Positions 11,400-40,646 of a DNA stretch of 64,000 nucleotides are shown here, in pieces. The stretch is taken from the NCBI GenBank assembly GCA_038040175.1, contig JBBPIT010000012.1:443-64442 (forward strand). Reading direction: 5' to 3'. The number at the start of each line of letters is the position of its first letter. The stretch's first letter is position 1. The DNA comes from Pseudomonadota bacterium. GTDB taxonomy: Bacteria; Pseudomonadota; Gammaproteobacteria; Burkholderiales; JACQAP01. The position numbers and the translations under genes are program-made. The notes under the pieces are model-generated. The model worked only from the letters and a program-made list of their open reading frames with translations, ran no database searches and was not told the DNA's origin.

Positions 11400-11576
11400 T
11401 CACCGCAAAGACGCAAAGAACGCAAAGAGAGGCAAGACAATATATGGCAGATCACGATGAATAAAAGGGGCACGATATGTTGCAGGCTACGTGAGCTTTC
11501 CCTCGTATGACTGGCTCTGGATTCTGATTCTCCTGTTTTTACTTTGCGGCCTTTGCGTCTTTGCGTCTTTGCGGTG
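11400..11576. repeat. Gene-less inverted-repeat element (CGCAAAGA-unit arms)
   Basis: Left arm TCACCGCAAAGACGCAAAGAACGCAAAG 11400-11427, inverted arm 11542-11576, ~114-bp AT-rich interior. Confidence 0.9.
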
Positions 11577-11596
11577 GGACTTACGCATTGGTCTTT

Positions 11597-12091
11597 CTAC
11601 ACTGTTTTGACACGGGAACGACGGAAACTATCCCAGATCAGCAGCGCCGCGCCGATGGTGATGCACGAATCGGCCAGGTTGAAAGCCGGCCACGGATCCA
11701 GCAGCCGCGGGCCTCCCGGCCAGCGCAACAGCAGGTAGTCCACCACCGCCCCATAAATGGCGCGGTCGATCAGATTGCCCACCGCCCCGCCGAGCACCAG
11801 CGCCAGCGCAAAGCACAGAAAGCGATCCCGCACATGCTTTTTCATCATGTAGACAATCAGAATCGACGCCGCCAGCGCGATCACCATGAAGAAGTAACGC
11901 TGCCAACCCGATGCCCACGCCAGGAAGCTGAACGCCGCGCCGGGGTTGTAGGTCAGGACCAGACTGAAAACCGGCGGCAACACGTCCACCGCCTGGCCGA
12001 ACGCGATCGTGTGCAGGATGACCTGTTTGGTGATCTGATCAAGTACGACGATCAGCCCACTCAGGCCCAGCCACACCGCGATGCTACGCAT
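11597..12091 (-). CDS. lspA: Lipoprotein signal peptidase II
   Basis: [33 protein letters not shown]; overlaps the ileS stop. Confidence 0.95.
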
Positions 12092-14858
12092 GGACTCGGG
12101 GCTCGCCTGCGCCGAAAAGGTTGGACGTGCAGCGACTGCAGATGTCCGGATGCGCCGGGTCATGTCCCACGTCGGCACGGTAGTGCCAGCAGCGCTCGCA
12201 CTTGCGGTGGGAACTTGGGCGGACGATTACTGATCGTTTAACTTGGGAATCGATCTCGCGAACCGACGCGCTTGAAGTAATAAATACAAACCGCAAATCA
12301 TTGCCAAGAGACTTGAGTGCTTTGAAATACTCTCCTGCCCCTGTCAATTCGACCTCTGCGGCAAGCGAAGAGCCAATTTTCCCCTCAACGCGCGCAATTT
12401 CGATCTGTTTTTGCACTTCAGAACGAGCTGCTCGAATTCTGAGCCACTTGTCCACCAGGTGCATCTCACCCGAACAGTCTGGTAGATTTTTCCACTGCGC
12501 CAAGAAGACGCTTTCAGACTTTGCGCCGGGAATGAACAGCCAAGCTTCCTCTGCCGTGAAGCTAAGAACTGGCGCAATCATCCGTGTCAGTGAGCCCACA
12601 ATGTGCCAGAACGCGTTCTGGGCCGAACGACGCGCCTTCGAGTCGGCTCCCGCCGTGTAGAGTCGGTCCTTGAGAATATCGAGATAAAAGCCTCCCAAAT
12701 CCTCCGAACAAAAGTTCTGGATCTTTTGAGCCACCGTGTGGAATTCATACTTCTCGTAATAATCCCGTGAATCCGCTTCCCACATGGCCGTCATACACAG
12801 CGCATACCTGTCTATTTCCAGCCACTCTGTCACCGGCAGTGCGTTCAACTGTGGGTCAAAATCGGAAACATTGGCAAGCAAGAAGCGCAGCGTATTGCGA
12901 ATGCGGCGGTAACTCTCCACCACGCGCTTGAGGATTTCGTCGGAGATCGATAGCTCGCCGGAGTAATCGGTCGTCGCCACCCACAACCGCAGGATGTCCG
13001 CGCCCAGCGTATCCATCACCTTTTGCGGCGCGATCACGTTGCCGAGCGACTTCGACATCTTGCGGCCCTGGCCGTCCACCGCGAAGCCGTGGGTAAGCAG
13101 GCCCTTGAAGGGGGCGCGGCCGTCGATCGCACAGCCGGTGAGCAGCGAAGCCTGGAACCAGCCCCGGTGCTGGTCGTGGCCTTCGAGATAAAGGTCTGCC
13201 GGCTTGGTCAATTCCGCGCGCCGCTCGAGTACGCCGACGTGGGTAGTGCCGGAATCGAACCAGACATCGAGCGTGTCCGGCACCTTCCGGTAGGTTGCGG
13301 CGTCGCCGCCGAGCAATTCGGCCGGTTCCAGCGAGAACCAGGCTTCGATGCCCTCCTTCTCGACGCGCTGCGCAACTTGCTCCAGCAACTCGCCGGTGCG
13401 CGGATGCAGTTCGCCGGTTTCCTTGTGCACGAAAAACCCCATCGGCGTGCCCCAGTTGCGTTGGCGTGACACGCACCAGTCCGGACGGGTGGCGATCATC
13501 GCCTCGAGCCGCGCCCGGCCCCCGGCCGGATAGAACGCAGTGGCGTCCACCGCGGCCTTGGCGATTTCGCGCAGCGTCCGTTCACTGCCCGCTTCCATGC
13601 CGATGAACCACTGGCGGGTGGCGCGGAAGATAAGCGGTGATTTGTGCCGCCAGCAGTGCGGGTAGCTGTGTTTGACGGATTCGATGCGGATCAGGCGTTG
13701 CTTGTCCTCCAGCGCCTTGATGACGACATCGTTCGCCTTCCGCACCGACAGTCCGCCGACCAGAGGCACCTTGGCAAAGAAGACGCCGTCGTCGTCCACC
13801 GGGTTGTCCACCGGCAGCCCGTACCGCGAGCCGACCACATAGTCGTCGAGGCCGTGCGCAGGCGCGGTGTGCACCAGTCCGGTACCGGCATCCAGCGTCA
13901 CGTGCTCGCCGAGCACCACCGGAACCTGCCTCTCGTAGAACGGGTGCTGGAGCAGCACGCCTTCGATGTCCGCACCCTTGAACTCGGCGACGATCTGGCG
14001 ATCGTCTATCCGGTAGGCATCCATGCACTTGTCTGCGAGTTCCTTGGCAAGGATGAATATCCCTGCAGCGAAACGAACCAGCACGTATTCGAACTCGGGA
14101 TGAACGGCTACTGCCTGATTGGCCGGCAGCGTCCACGGCGTGGTGGTCCAGATCACGGCAAACACCGGCTCGTAGATATGCGAGAAGCGTAACGCCCGGG
14201 CCAGCGCCTTGTTGTCCGCGACCTTGAACGCCACGTCGATCGCCGGGGAGGTGCGGTCCTCGTACTCCACCTCGGCCTCCGCCAGCGCGGAGCGGCAGTC
14301 CATGCACCAGTGCACCGGCTTTGCGCCCTGGTATAAGAAGCCGCGTTCGCGGATGCGGCCGAGCGCACGGATGATGTCCGCTTCGGTTTTGAAATCCATC
14401 GTGCGGTATGGGTTCTGCCAGTCGCCGAGCACGCCGAGACGGATGAACCCCGCCTTCTGGCGCTCGATCTGCTCGGCCGCATACTCGCGGCAAAGCTTGC
14501 GGAACTGCGCGGCCGGGATGTTCTTGCCGTGCACCTTTTCGACCTGGTGCTCGATCGGCAGGCCGTGGCAGTCCCAGCCGGGAACGTAGGGCGCATCGAA
14601 ACCGGCAAGCGTTTTCGATTTCACCACGATGTCCTTGAGAATCTTGTTCACCGCATGGCCGATGTGTATATCGCCGTTGGCGTACGGCGGGCCGTCGTGA
14701 AGAATGAATTTCGGCCGCCCCCTGGCGGCCTCGCGGATGCGCTGGTAAAGCCTGGCCTCCTGCCATTGCTTCACCCAGCCGGGTTCGCGCCTGGCCAGAT
14801 CACCGCGCATCGGGAATGCCGTATCGGGAAGATTCAGTGTGTGCTTGTAATCAGCCAT
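12084..14858 (-). CDS. ileS: Isoleucine-tRNA ligase
   Basis: [21 protein letters not shown]-terminal CERCWH..CSRC zinc site. Confidence 0.98.
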
Positions 14859-14870
14859 TCGAAATAACTT

Positions 14871-15343
14871 TCACCGCAAAGACGCAAAGAGCGCAAAGAA
14901 AGAATGACTAGAGTTGGTTGACAATTCTCTTAATCCCGGATCGCATCAACAGTACGTTGAAATTGAGTATCAGTGCCATTTTGAGTCCCGTCATTTTCAG
15001 ATAGGTCAAGACTTGGGCCGTATGTATGGGCTGTACCTTGTCTATCGATTTCAGTTCGAGGAGGAGCTTTCCCTCTACCAGCAAATCGATTCGATAACCC
15101 TCATCGAGAGTGAGTCCCTTGTAGCGTATGGGGACCGGTACCTGGTTCTCAACATCAAACCCACGCTGACGCAGCTCCCACGACAGACACCTCTCGTATG
15201 CCGACTCCAGCAATCCCGGGCCAAGGTTGCGATGCACCTCGATCGCTGCCCCTATTGTTTCGCTGCTCAAGCGATTGAGTTCATCTACATCGTTCTTGGT
15301 CGAAATCATGTACTTCTTTGCGCTCTTTGCGTCTTTGCGGTGA
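14871..15343. mobile_element. Candidate GxxExxY element: gene bracketed by perfect 30-bp inverted repeats
   Basis: TCACCGCAAAGACGCAAAGAGCGCAAAGAA at 14871-14900 and its exact reverse complement at 15314-15343; mobility is inferred. Confidence 0.6.
14908..15309 (-). CDS. GxxExxY protein (PD-(D/E)xK nuclease-like fold)
   Basis: AIEVHRNLGPGLLESAYERCL, YRIDLLVEGKLLLELKS, AQVLTYLK, ILNFN; lower GC than neighbours. Confidence 0.95.
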   Translation of the reverse strand: MISTKNDVDELNRLSSETIGAAIEVHRNLGPGLLESAYERCLSWELRQRGFDVENQVPVPIRYKGLTLDEGYRIDLLVEGKLLLELKSIDKVQPIHTAQVLTYLKMTGLKMALILNFNVLLMRSGIKRIVNQL

Positions 15344-16259
15344 GAAAGTAGTCCCGCGCAGCGGCAGCATCGCGACGCATCTGAGCGACCAGCGAATCCA
15401 GATCGGTGAACTTCTGCTCTTCCCTCAGCTTCTCGAGGAAGTGCACCGTGATGCGCTTGCCGTAAATGCGTTCGTCGAAGTCGAACAAATGCACTTCCAG
15501 CGTTGGCCGGCCGCCTTCCTTGACGGTCGGCCGCACGCCCAGGCTGGCGACACCGGGATGCGGCGCCGGGCCCAGGCCCTCAACTTCGACGACAAAAATT
15601 CCGGACAGCGGCGCCTTGAGCCGTTTCAACTGCACGTTCGCGGTCGGGTAGCCGATCTTCGCCCCGAGTTTGTCCCCGTCCACTACTTTTCCGGAAATCG
15701 CATAACGCCTGCCGAGCAGGCGCTGGGCGCCGTCCAGGTCGCCCTTTTCCAGGCAGGCTCGGATCGCGGTGCTGGAAACCCGCGCACCTTCCACCACCAC
15801 ACTGGCCATCGCCTCGACATCGAATCCCGCTTGCGGCGCCATCGACTTCAGATGGGCCAGGTCGCCGGCGCGCCGCGCGCCGAATCGGAAATCGTCGCCG
15901 ACCAGGAGCCATTTCACCGCCAGCCCATCGCGAAGAACATGCGTAACGAAGTCGTCGGCCGTCAACTGCGCGAACGCGTAGCCGAAGCGGCACACGTATA
16001 CGCGCGCCACTCCACATTGACGCAACAGTTCGAGTTTCTCGCGCAGCGAGGTCAGGCGTGCCGGTGCCTGGTCCGGGGCAAAAAATTCCTGCGGCTGCGG
16101 CTCGAAGGTCATCACGGCCGCCGGCAGGCCGCGCGACCGCGCCGCCTCGGAGAGCCGCGCGATCATGGCGCGATGCCCGAGATGGACGCCGTCGAAATTG
16201 CCGATGGTGAGCGCGATGGGCGTGTCCGCCCGCGCCGGGATACCCCGAAAGACCCGCAT
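15306..16259 (-). CDS. ribF: Bifunctional riboflavin kinase/FAD synthetase
   Basis: TIGNFDGVHLGH, GDDFRFG, VSSTAIR, GYPTAN, LEVHLFDF. Confidence 0.97.
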   Translation of the reverse strand: MRVFRGIPARADTPIALTIGNFDGVHLGHRAMIARLSEAARSRGLPAAVMTFEPQPQEFFAPDQAPARLTSLREKLELLRQCGVARVYVCRFGYAFAQLTADDFVTHVLRDGLAVKWLLVGDDFRFGARRAGDLAHLKSMAPQAGFDVEAMASVVVEGARVSSTAIRACLEKGDLDGAQRLLGRRYAISGKVVDGDKLGAKIGYPTANVQLKRLKAPLSGIFVVEVEGLGPAPHPGVASLGVRPTVKEGGRPTLEVHLFDFDERIYGKRITVHFLEKLREEQKFTDLDSLVAQMRRDAAAARDYFLTAKTQRAQRST

Positions 16260-24867: not shown

Positions 24868-25039
24868 TTTCACCGCAAAGACGCAAAGAACGCAAAGGAA
24901 AACAAGAGGCAGGAACGGGAGCCATACGCAATTCTTCTGTCGTTTCGACTACGTGGCCGGTCGGTATGCCTTATTCTCAATCCGGATTTCCGTACCCGTT
25001 ACAGTATTTCTTTGCGTTCTTTGCGTCTTTGCGGTGAAA
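24868..25039. repeat. Second gene-less inverted-repeat element (CGCAAAGA-unit arms)
   Basis: TTTCACCGCAAAGACGCAAAGAACGCAAAG 24868-24897 and exact reverse complement 25010-25039; 112-bp interior. Confidence 0.92.
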
Positions 25040-31870: not shown

Positions 31871-31879
31871 AACGATTCG

Positions 31880-31928
31880 GTGACGGGTGACGGGTGACGG
31901 GTGGCGAGTGACAAGTGACAAGTGACAA
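31880..31928. repeat. Heptamer tandem repeat (GTGACGG x3, GTGGCGA, GTGACAA x3)
   Basis: Seven 7-bp units directly after the yajQ stop. Confidence 0.9.
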
Positions 31929-32139
31929 GTAAAGTGTACTACCTCAGTCTTGAGCTGGCACACATTGCCTGACCAAGCCGACCCCAAATCACATGCGTGG
32001 CGCTGGAAACGGCCAGGAGGAGACGGTCAAGCATTTCCTCCATAGCGGTCACTCGATCGGCACATTACCTATGCGGACAGATGTCCTCAGTGCCTGGGCA
32101 ATGAATCAAGCTGATTTCGTGCGTGACGCGCCACTCCGC

Positions 32140-33869: not shown

Positions 33870-34099
33870 CGTGAATGAAGACCGCAGCAGGGACCGAAGT
33901 CAGGTCTGCCGGATCCCTCGGTTATCATTCAGTCCGCTTACAACTGTTTACGCGCGTGCCATCCCATCGATGGGTTCGGCTTCGTTTTTTTTCTTTGCGC
34001 CCTTTCTTGCTCTTCTTCGCGCTCTTTGCGTCAACGCCTTTATCGCCGGCCATCGGCCGGCTGAATCCAATTCAACACACTGTACGCAACACCCGCCTC

Positions 34100-39592: not shown

Positions 39593-39646
39593 TCAGATCT
39601 CCTCGCGTATCGATCCGGCAAACAAAATGTCCGTAGGGGACGTTCG

Positions 39647-39688
39647 CCTCTCGCGTCTCGCCTCTCGCCTCTCGCCTCTCGCCTCTCG
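39647..39688. repeat. Heptamer tandem repeat (CCTCTCG x6, one variant)
   Basis: Directly downstream of the cyclase gene stop. Confidence 0.9.
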
Positions 39689-39689
39689 C

Positions 39690-40646
39690 CTACCTTATTG
39701 CAATCGGCGCCACCGTCGAACCGGTTCCGCCCTTGATCTTGAGCGGCTGCACCACGAAGGCAAACTCGTAGGCCTTCTTCGCCGCCAGTTCGTCGAGCTT
39801 CATGTTCTCGAGCAAGAAGATGCCGTAGACGGCAAGCGCGAGCTGGTGGATCGGCAGGTTGATATTCTTGTCGGGATTCGGGAAAACCTCGACCGGGAAG
39901 GTATCCGCGCCGAACAGGATCGGATCCTGTTTCGCCAGCCACTCCGCCGCCGGCACGCCGATGCCCGGGCAACCGCTGTTGTACTTGGCGTTGTCCACGC
40001 CCCACAGCTTGCCCCAGCCGGTGTGGATCAGCACCGCGTCGCCTTTCTGCAGCGTCACGCCCTGCTTCTTCAGCGCCGCCTGCAGGTCATCGACCGTGAT
40101 CTCGTAGCTCAGCGGCAGCATGTCCACGCCTTTGGATGCCGCCACGTCGATCAGGACGCCGCGCGTATAGATCGCGCCGATCTTGTCGACGCCGAGCTTG
40201 GTGAAACCGTTGCGGGAAGTAATCTCGTCGGTCTTGAAGCAGTTGTAGTGGCTGTTGTCGATGCTCTGGTGAGAGAACATGTCGAACTGGGTGCCGACCT
40301 GGCCGAGTTCGGTGATGACGAATTCCTCGTTGCTGTAGCGTTTGTTGGTCCCCATCGGACCACCGGTGCGTTTGGTATGGATGTCGAAACGGCGCGTGCC
40401 GAAGAAGGGCATGTCCATCGCCAGGACGCGGCCGAGTTCGACGACTTCACCCGACTTGATGAGCCGCGAAGCACGCAGCACCAGTTCCGGGCTCATGAGG
40501 TTCGCCGCCCCGCGCTCGTCGCCCGCGCCCCACTTCGACGGACAGCGCGCCTCAGGCGCCGGCGGGCTCCAGGTCTGCGCGGTTGCGGTAGCCGAACAAA
40601 GCACCAGCAGCGCTGCCGTTGCAGCAAGAAGTTTGGTTGTTTTCAT
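39690..40646 (-). CDS. Exported cyclase family (kynurenine formamidase-like) metallohydrolase
   Basis: Signal peptide, WGAGDERGAAN, QVGTQFDMFSH, TRGVLID, GDAVLIHTGW, PLKIKGGTGS. Confidence 0.88.
   Translation of the reverse strand: MKTTKLLAATAALLVLCSATATAQTWSPPAPEARCPSKWGAGDERGAANLMSPELVLRASRLIKSGEVVELGRVLAMDMPFFGTRRFDIHTKRTGGPMGTNKRYSNEEFVITELGQVGTQFDMFSHQSIDNSHYNCFKTDEITSRNGFTKLGVDKIGAIYTRGVLIDVAASKGVDMLPLSYEITVDDLQAALKKQGVTLQKGDAVLIHTGWGKLWGVDNAKYNSGCPGIGVPAAEWLAKQDPILFGADTFPVEVFPNPDKNINLPIHQLALAVYGIFLLENMKLDELAAKKAYEFAFVVQPLKIKGGTGSTVAPIAIR

Follow-up and report, generated by a model that had tools for sequence, protein, structure and literature searches.

A GxxExxY nuclease gene enclosed by inverted tandem-repeat arms in a ribF-ileS operon, a candidate selfish DNA cassette of Burkholderiales genomes

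We analyzed a 64,000-nucleotide (nt) stretch (here, the window) of contig JBBPIT010000012.1 from a Pseudomonadota bacterium of the order Burkholderiales (GenBank assembly GCA_038040175.1). According to the open reading frame (ORF) list of the window, a 473-nt insert lies between ileS and ribF. It consists of one gene of the GxxExxY family enclosed by two 30-nt arms with 100% complementarity and 413 nt between them (Table 1). Each arm begins with TCACC and continues with three 8- to 9-nt units of the CGCAAAGA type (period 8 to 9, 2.9 copies). The window contains 7 occurrences of the two-unit CGCAAAGA pattern, where 0.07 would be expected, and 0 of 100 shuffles reached 7. The enclosed ORF encodes 133 amino acids (aa), matches the profiles PF13366 (PDDEXK_3; E = 5.7e-42, 143.2 bits, cutoff 22) and TIGR04256 (GxxExxY; E = 8.1e-43, 145.5 bits, cutoff 35), and has a G+C content of 0.50, compared with 0.609 for ileS, 0.653 for ribF, and 0.603 for the window. 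An earlier interpretation made from the letters of the window without database searches (the sequence-only reading) had described just this arrangement, a lower-G+C GxxExxY gene in perfect 30-nt inverted arms between ribF and ileS, and the coordinates, profiles, and base composition bear it out. The ribF frame passes through the upstream arm, which encodes the last ribF residues (14 are added here). Because the ribF stop codon overlaps the cassette start codon and the frame runs through the arm, the gene appears to be placed for transcription by read-through and for translational coupling. This layout suggests that the cassette rides the ribF-ileS operon, with the last arm unit at the would-be ribosome-binding site.

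The encoded protein carries the residues expected of a nuclease. In an alignment of 50 intact proteins from the genus, G30, D75, E85, K87, and Q99 are invariant. Within the name-giving motif (G32-x-x-E35-x-x-Y38), E35 and Y38 are conserved in at least 90% of these sequences, and Y103 is nearly invariant. As judged from the alignment, this set is a full PD-(D/E)xK site with a RecB/Cas4-like Q...Y, and the enzyme looks active, its catalytic residues being intact. An AlphaFold2 model of the 133-aa protein (predicted local distance difference test score, 94.1) matched Cas4 (4r5q; Foldseek E = 4e-3), 3ijm (Z = 8.0), R.SwaI (7.7), Cas4 SSO0001 (7.5), and Hjc (6.6). The predicted fold is thus restriction endonuclease-like, and no subfamily stands out (all Z ≤8.0). 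Assignment to the junction resolvases, the Cas4-like enzymes, or the restriction-like enzymes by fold was attempted and rejected, as the matches are too generic to tell these apart. A sequence search of solved structures with the GxxExxY protein returned a chance-level match at best (E = 0.63), and no family in PADLOC or PHROGs matched it. The function of PF13366/TIGR04256 is given as “Unknown” in a 2012 survey of PD-(D/E)xK proteins (PMC3424549), and another paper that mentions this large family likewise assigns it no function where it is named. The sequence-only reading had taken a restriction-like nuclease to be the protein of the element, and this stands: it is the only encoded protein, and its catalytic residues are intact. 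Among 64 GxxExxY ORFs in the genus, 14 are truncated, frameshifted, extended, or cut by a contig end, including the copy at ribF-ileS in genome G020. The G+C contents of all 64 (L001 to L003, L009 to L018, and L038 to L089) range from 0.43 to 0.55 with a median of 0.50, compared with ∼0.62 for the genomes. This low G+C, found even though most GxxExxY genes occupy conserved slots, could be due to turnover or to a mutational bias acting on frequently single-stranded DNA.

The association of gene and arms extends beyond the window. The genome from which the window derives (G000; a 3.78-Mb draft of 129 contigs, 62% G+C) contains three GxxExxY genes, all within inverted tandem-unit arms, each with a different unit variant, and all co-oriented with their flanking genes. 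Across the genus, a clear inverted repeat of C-R-C-x-R-A-G-type units occurs at 45 of 62 GxxExxY loci; the other 17 are without clear arms. All 45 clear arms are of the C-R-C-x-R-A-G type, and none consists of the G-rich heptamers that flank PF05635 genes. The sequence-only reading had proposed to test whether arm sequence covaries with protein phylogeny; in the genus, the arm variant follows the protein clade. Three-unit arrays number fewer than 50 in 5 of 8 gene-free genomes, versus 3 of 29 genomes with a gene match (two of these matches are those of G049, an unpublished genome), a comparison in which relatedness was not controlled. In a pair of sister genomes, G023 has four gene matches and 186 arrays, and G001 has no gene match and 12 arrays.

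Most copies of the repeat in this genome are gene-less. We counted 398 arrays of the C-R-C-x-R-A-G class, of which 120 pairs are no more than 600 nt apart. All pairs run in the order of purine-rich arm followed by complement, with 0 pairs reversed. The interiors of the 120 paired elements are mostly 90 to 150 nt long, and three carry a GxxExxY gene. The 30-nt arm of the ribF-ileS cassette occurs at 11 genome sites with at most one mismatch and at 27 with at most two, its own two included. Two gene-less copies (placed at 11400 and 24868) and a degenerate arm (near 33990 to 34033) had been picked out of the window in the sequence-only reading; both copies were recovered with interiors of ∼110 nt, and the arm was recovered as a decayed one lacking a partner (Table 1). 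The imperfect outward extension of the inverted repeat at ribF-ileS (ACTT/AAGT) recurs in a CTTT/AAAG-like form at many gene-less copies. The two gene-less families that are largest and have the most perfect arms are also the ones with arms matching a resident gene, namely, CGCAAAG with period 8 (34 pairs, 95.4%) and CACGAAG with period 8 (26 pairs, 95.7% arm identity); the arm identity of families without a resident gene is 88 to 92%. The interiors are heterogeneous: among 42 CGCAAAG elements, just 12 pairs align over at least 60 nt, the best of them reaching 95% across 139 nt and 90% across 203 nt. Direct flank repeats of the 120 paired elements are no more frequent than in re-paired controls (k = 2, 7 versus 7.4; k = 4, 0 versus 0.8), so that the absence of an evident target duplication, as remarked for the window, holds genome-wide.

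Table 1. Positions of the ribF-ileS cassette, its neighbors, and related elements (window coordinates unless a contig is given)
Feature	Position	Strand	Remarks
ileS	12084-14858	-	From ORF list
Imperfect outward extension of inverted repeat	14867-14870 (ACTT); partner 15346-15349 (AAGT)		Read from sequence
Arm 3' of GxxExxY gene	14871-14900		TCACC and three CGCAAAGA-type units on + strand; 12 nt to ileS start codon
GxxExxY/PDDEXK_3 nuclease gene	14908-15309	-	133 aa; from profiles
ATGA overlap	15306-15309	-	ribF TGA (15306-15308) overlaps cassette ATG (15307-15309)
ribF	15306-16259	-	From ORF list
Arm 5' of GxxExxY gene	15314-15343		TCACC and CGCAAAGA units on gene sense strand; 4 nt before ATG
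Gene-less copy A	11400-11577		~111 nt between arms 11400-11429 and 11541-11577; lies 19 nt upstream of a start codon on the minus strand
Gene-less copy C	24870-25037		Arms 24870-24899 and 25008-25037; interior ~108 nt; between two convergent genes
Solo decayed arm	33985-34037	-	CTTTGCG-type units ending GTCAAC; no partner arm nearby
Arms of the three resident GxxExxY genes			CGCAAAG (window); CACGAAG (contig 43, 50 nt, 86% complementary); CGCAGAG/CACAGAG (contig 8, 38 nt, 82%)
PF05635 loci L004-L007	C3:6428-6718, C18:10695-11009, C102:683-970, C103:6361-6636		Genome G000

We compared the ribF-ileS junction in 25 relatives. Besides this genome, 9 of the 25 have a gene at the same place and in the same orientation, one of them (G027) belonging to another family, and a genus-wide search added 5, so that 15 loci in total share the ribF-ileS flanks. 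The remaining junctions hold unrelated short spacers, save for a decayed arm pair without a gene in G022, a solo arm in G009, and a clean empty site in G023, in which the flanks of TTAACC-ended alleles are joined at one TTAA. We rejected the G022 junction as a proven internal deletion, as its alignment to the sister genome G008 is limited to the right arm and flank (77% over 75 nt) and does not extend to the interior. Filled and empty genomes are interspersed in an ileS tree (1,400 nt), and one clade (support, 100/99) unites the filled genomes G002 and G000 with the empty genomes G013, G023, and G001. Public metagenome contigs from two studies have a 249-nt internal deletion (positions 15024 to 15272) that removes residues 13 to 95, and with them E35, D75, E85, and K87; one such contig of 905 nt has no mismatch on the left side. 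A metagenome contig that joins position 14864 to 15346 with ten letters between them represents the empty allele. Empty ribF-ileS sites, which the sequence-only reading had proposed to look for, thus exist in G023 and in one metagenome contig. That reading had also held that vertical conservation of the gene at this locus would speak against a mobile element; the 15 loci with shared flanks are mostly inherited, but the cassette has also been lost, as the empty allele and the decayed remnants indicate. The simplest reading of these sequences would be an old residence with repeated loss. The cassette of G020 groups with those of G000 and G002 (support, 92/97) and its ileS groups with G004, G018, and G021; given this disagreement between cassette and flank trees, some exchange between lineages must have taken place. 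At the same position beside the ileS start in G031, from another family of the order, we observed a CACAGAG-type left arm followed by a different inverted-repeat element (GTCATTCTGAGCGAG...) without a GxxExxY gene (L030).

Elsewhere in the genus, cassettes have been copied, inverted, and exchanged. Two cassettes of G050 are 88.8% identical over 498 nt, with similarity that stops at the outer arm ends and flanks that are unrelated. In the MFS-valS slot, the G050 cassette is inverted relative to the flank by comparison with G000. At slot A, G000 and G002 share the same arms and boundaries around unrelated interiors, and the slot-A interior of G013 is 83% identical to the copy C interior of the window. 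In one intergenic slot, the flanking proteins are 86 to 93% identical between genomes and the cassette proteins only 38 to 40%, with different arm types; another slot holds three protein types, mutually 58 to 61% identical, with CGCGGAG, CACGGAG, and CGCCAAG arms. At two loci (L076 in G002 and L079 in G051), the GxxExxY gene is flanked by CTCTGTG-type arrays that are direct rather than inverted, and in six other genomes, this slot is occupied by a cassette with CACGAAGG arms. The slot of copy C varies as well. In G002 (L096), the right arm of the orthologous copy is split by a 28-nt insertion with a small palindrome, and in G013 (L097), a different element of ∼290 nt has a separate terminal inverted repeat (beginning GGGAAGCTCTGA) and no tandem units. 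A 1.6-kb insert at this slot in G023 was set aside as an ordinary gene that lacks arms; G001 has an insert of comparable length. Within the window, gene-less interiors are also low in G+C (0.45 to 0.50).

The two arms of a cassette change together. In an alignment of 14 ribF-ileS cassettes with 21 outer arm pairs counted, 93.6% of arm cells are paired, compared with 40 to 52% in slid registers. Eight of the 21 pairs change on both sides, and the covariation score was reached by 0 of 500 shuffles. The two-sided changes include one position that is A-T in seven sequences and G-C in seven, as well as the TCACC versus TTAACC ends. As the aligned genomes are related, this result speaks to coordinated change and not to a number of independent events. 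Among 38 ungapped arm pairs, 47 mismatches would give G·U in the sense RNA and 41 would give A·C (P = 0.59), and 49 are transversions; the absence of a G·U excess points to DNA rather than RNA as the selected object. The cassette RNA is predicted to fold with its arms paired (z = −5.6), as is copy A when folded as single-stranded DNA (z = −6.0), and such predicted pairing is expected of any repeat of this kind.

Taken together, the locus has the look of a type of selfish DNA that has not been described, and we hold with middling confidence that it belongs to a family of selfish cassettes whose nuclease most likely targets the arms, with the rearrangements left to host recombination. Such a cassette consists of a minimal PD-(D/E)xK gene enclosed by terminal inverted arms; at the outer end of each arm, a constant TCACC or TTAACC precedes three to four tandem 8- to 10-nt units of the C-R-C-R-R-A-G class. 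The nuclease, probably as a dimer (which we assume), would recognize the repeated units of both arms, either as duplex or as an extruded hairpin or cruciform, and cut at the arms, and the breaks would be handed over to host recombination and repair. These could then copy or exchange the content between the arms of different copies and flip the interior. Occasionally, arms and interior together would be copied to a new intergenic site without target duplication. Internal deletion would turn gene-bearing copies into gene-less hairpin copies, which would persist as nonautonomous relics. Arm binding and cleavage by the protein, its dimeric state, and the driving of these events by its breaks are inferred, and with them the “autonomous” role that the sequence-only reading gave to the gene.

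Several observations weigh against a nuclease-driven cassette, and many of them also favor its main rival, in which the hairpins form a repeat class of their own, generated or moved by the host or by some unlinked enzyme, and the GxxExxY gene is a passenger that has lodged in a tolerated loop and has another job, such as repair or defense. We regard this alternative as credible but rather doubtful. It draws on a sample from the wider phylum, in which only 7 of 30 GxxExxY loci have clear arms (within 130 nt) and 23 of 30 do not. Arrays are abundant in three of the eight genomes in which no gene was detected: G043 (100% complete), G012, and G047 have no PF13366 match yet contain 177, 248, and 453 three-unit arrays. 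CACGGAG arrays number 76 to 161 in at least seven genomes in which no full-length gene of the CACGGAG arm type was found, and G007 has a gene of this type and just 7 arrays. Within the genome of the window, at least three element families have no cognate gene (CACGAAG with period 9, with period 10, and CTCACCGC(A/G)GAGGA), and the contig 8 gene has no dispersed family, its arm occurring at one site with at most four mismatches, its own. The gene-free genomes with arrays and the CACGGAG arrays without a cognate gene rule out a strict dependence of one repeat family on one gene, with the qualification that all genomes are drafts that break at such repeats, which makes gene absences uncertain. 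Single slots that hold different cassettes across genomes also fit a passenger, as do the paired inverted heptamer arrays of Xanthomonas, which have no associated gene as far as the part of PMC4692102 consulted describes them.

A second kind of gene in similar surroundings adds to these points. PF05635 genes, which encode a four-helix bundle, sit in analogous heptamer arms, so that a nuclease is not needed for the layout. In the genome of the window, all four PF05635 genes are bracketed by G-rich heptamer arrays in inverted orientation (GAGGCGT, CCACGAG/GTACGTG, GGATGAA, and GTGAAGG). We also observed a DUF559 (Vsr-like nuclease) domain within a 905-codon open frame (C9:66559 to 66885; L132), flanked by the inverted G-rich/C-rich arms GGGGTGAGGG and CCCTCACCCC with small GGGAGAGGGG palindromes. 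By its sequence, it is a predicted third type of nuclease cassette, translated in frame.

Further points tell against the proposed mechanism itself. PD-(D/E)xK enzymes hydrolyze DNA and do not rejoin it. The GxxExxY genes of the genus sit in ∼8 syntenic slots and thus rarely move, and near-identical copies that would mark a recent burst were not seen in this genome, where the best pair of gene-less copies is 95% identical over 139 nt. A protein-level GxxExxY remnant was detected in 0 of the 117 gene-less interiors of this genome, which rules out that these copies are recognizable deleted genes. The claim that gene and arms form one selfish unit with gene-less derivatives is therefore upheld only in part: the G050 copy of arms plus gene, the dispersed arms, and the 249-nt deletion agree with it, and the interiors, none of which keeps a piece of the gene, do not. 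Similarly, the expectation that other GxxExxY genes should have arms if they belong to the element holds for 45 of the 62 genus loci and fails for the remaining 17 and for the 23 in the phylum sample. What a passenger would leave unexplained is the pairing of the GxxExxY family with one arm class only (45 of 45 clear arms), the agreement of arm variant with protein clade, the movement of arms and gene together in G050, the match of the largest and most perfect gene-less families to resident genes, and, subject to the uncontrolled relatedness noted above, the scarcity of arrays in five of the eight gene-free genomes. PADLOC, moreover, gave no defense-family match that would support the other job.

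An RNA-level element comparable to the intervening sequences of 23S rRNA appears quite unlikely as the full explanation. Here, the 30-bp stem would be cut by RNase III in the transcript, releasing or silencing the cassette RNA; the arms would be kept complementary for the sake of the RNA stem, and the DNA changes would be ordinary recombination and slippage at a palindrome. The predicted pairing of the arms in the cassette RNA, their covariation at specific positions, and the orientation of the cassette with ribF and ileS, with translational coupling, agree with this view, as does the Coxiella intervening sequence, which has a 28-bp terminal stem, a loop ORF, and excision by RNase III (PMC4990558). 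Against it stand the mismatches, in which G·U is not in excess over A·C (47 versus 41) and transversions are as common (49), the location of gene-less copies between convergent genes as well (copy C), and the persistence of the flipped, antisense cassette in G050. It would also account for tolerance and expression but not for the dispersal of 120 copies of one polarity. An RNA-level role may be compatible with either the selfish cassette or the passenger. A known class of enzyme encoded elsewhere, such as a DDE transposase acting on MITEs (miniature inverted-repeat transposable elements), an IS200/IS605-type or RAYT single-strand transposase, or an integron integrase that uses attC-like hairpins, is very improbable, for although the terminal inverted repeats and many short copies would suit it and the TTAACC...GGTTAA ends of some alleles resemble attC core sites, there is no target duplication, the elements are solitary in housekeeping operons rather than in arrays, the arms are tandem units rather than single palindromes, and PF13366 is the only gene enclosed in this arm class (no search was aimed at transposases with matching ends).

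Among described systems, the selfish cassette invites comparison with the REPIN/RAYT (REPtron) systems, which share several features with it: a repeat that is dispersed as gene-less hairpin doublets also flanks a single-copy gene in inverted copies, the gene is mostly vertical at a fixed place, and several pairs of gene and repeat variants coexist per genome. The cassette differs in that it encodes a PD-(D/E)xK hydrolase (sole Pfam match, PF13366) rather than a Y1 HUH transposase, its arms are arrays of 8- to 10-nt tandem units rather than short palindromes, its gene-less interiors are heterogeneous and swapped between slots, and the dependence of repeat on gene is loose. With pairs of transposons and MITEs, it shares terminal inverted repeats, many short gene-less copies with the ends of the gene-bearing copy, and an internal-deletion form; unlike them, it has no target-site duplication, no DDE or other known transposase (only PF13366/TIGR04256), and gene-less interiors that are unrelated to the gene. 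Free-standing homing endonuclease genes are similar as small, lower-G+C nuclease genes that are present or absent at an exact site among close relatives, spread by host repair, and decay by deletion. For the cassette, however, the homology would be provided by its own 30-nt arms, common to many sites, and not by the flanks of one allele, and to our knowledge no cleavage of the empty site is known here. Integron cassettes differ from these elements, which are solitary, have two arms each, and occupy ∼8 separate housekeeping slots (intI and attC models were not searched).

Two further comparisons concern an rRNA element and a class of intergenic repeats. The ORF-bearing intervening sequences of 23S rRNA in Coxiella burnetii and Leptospira (PMC4990558) share with the ribF-ileS cassette a length of ∼430 to 490 nt, terminal inverted repeats that form a stem of ∼28 to 30 bp, and one small loop ORF; they are called selfish, are sporadic in distribution, and have no known mobility enzyme. 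A further likeness is the location of the four PF05635 (S23p-type) genes of this genome between inverted heptamer arrays. The ribF-ileS cassette differs in lying in a protein-coding operon, in its nuclease ORF in place of a four-helix bundle, in its tandem-unit arms, and in having more than 100 gene-less copies, and its mismatch pattern gives RNase III excision no support. In Xanthomonas, intergenic (GGGAATC)n heptamer arrays form convergent opposite-strand pairs at 70 to 75 per genome, with a type that is conserved between species and a function reported as unknown (Rehm et al. 2015, PMC4692102). The authors state that, in general, they found no association of these heptamers with mobile elements, and the main text, the part of the paper searched, contains neither “nuclease” nor “four helix.” The units studied here differ in being 8 to 10 nt long, in not forming G-quadruplexes, and in enclosing a gene family. 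Our literature searches brought up no account of GxxExxY genes in arms of this kind, although subscription journals and unopened supplements may hold one.

More tentatively still, GxxExxY proteins might be the dedicated enzymes of an unrecognized superfamily of mobile cassettes without transposases, a generalization that we put forward as possible while thinking it on balance unlikely. Each enzyme would cut arms made of its own recognition units, and host recombination would copy, flip, swap, and excise the cassettes. Together with other small genes (S23p/Avd-like four-helix bundles and DUF559) and other units, the superfamily would cover the paired arrays of Xanthomonas, of cyanobacteria, and of this genus, as well as the ORF-bearing rRNA intervening sequences. 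The locus and its relatives give the orphan PF13366/TIGR04256 family a candidate substrate, namely, the repeat units that flank its genes. Should the nuclease drive the copying, flipping, and swapping seen here, the cassettes would be a class of mobile DNA without a transposase. This would supply a cause for hundreds of hitherto unexplained intergenic tandem-repeat hairpins per genome and a natural set of small nucleases, each with its own 8- to 10-nt recognition unit. The cassettes also alter gene ends, as in the ribF extension, break draft assemblies, and mislead annotation.

Tandem repeats of other types are present in the window and in the genome. In the window, GGTGACG is repeated four times and followed by three copies of AGTGACA (31879 to 31930), and TCGCCTC is repeated 6.9 times (39644 to 39691). 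A simple scan of the genome recovered 418 arrays of 7- to 9-nt units, many of them at contig ends, with units that include GTGAAGG, GGATGAA, GAGGCGT, CGAGGGG, CGTGAATAT, CGTGACGA, CCACGAA, and AGTGCTC, among others.

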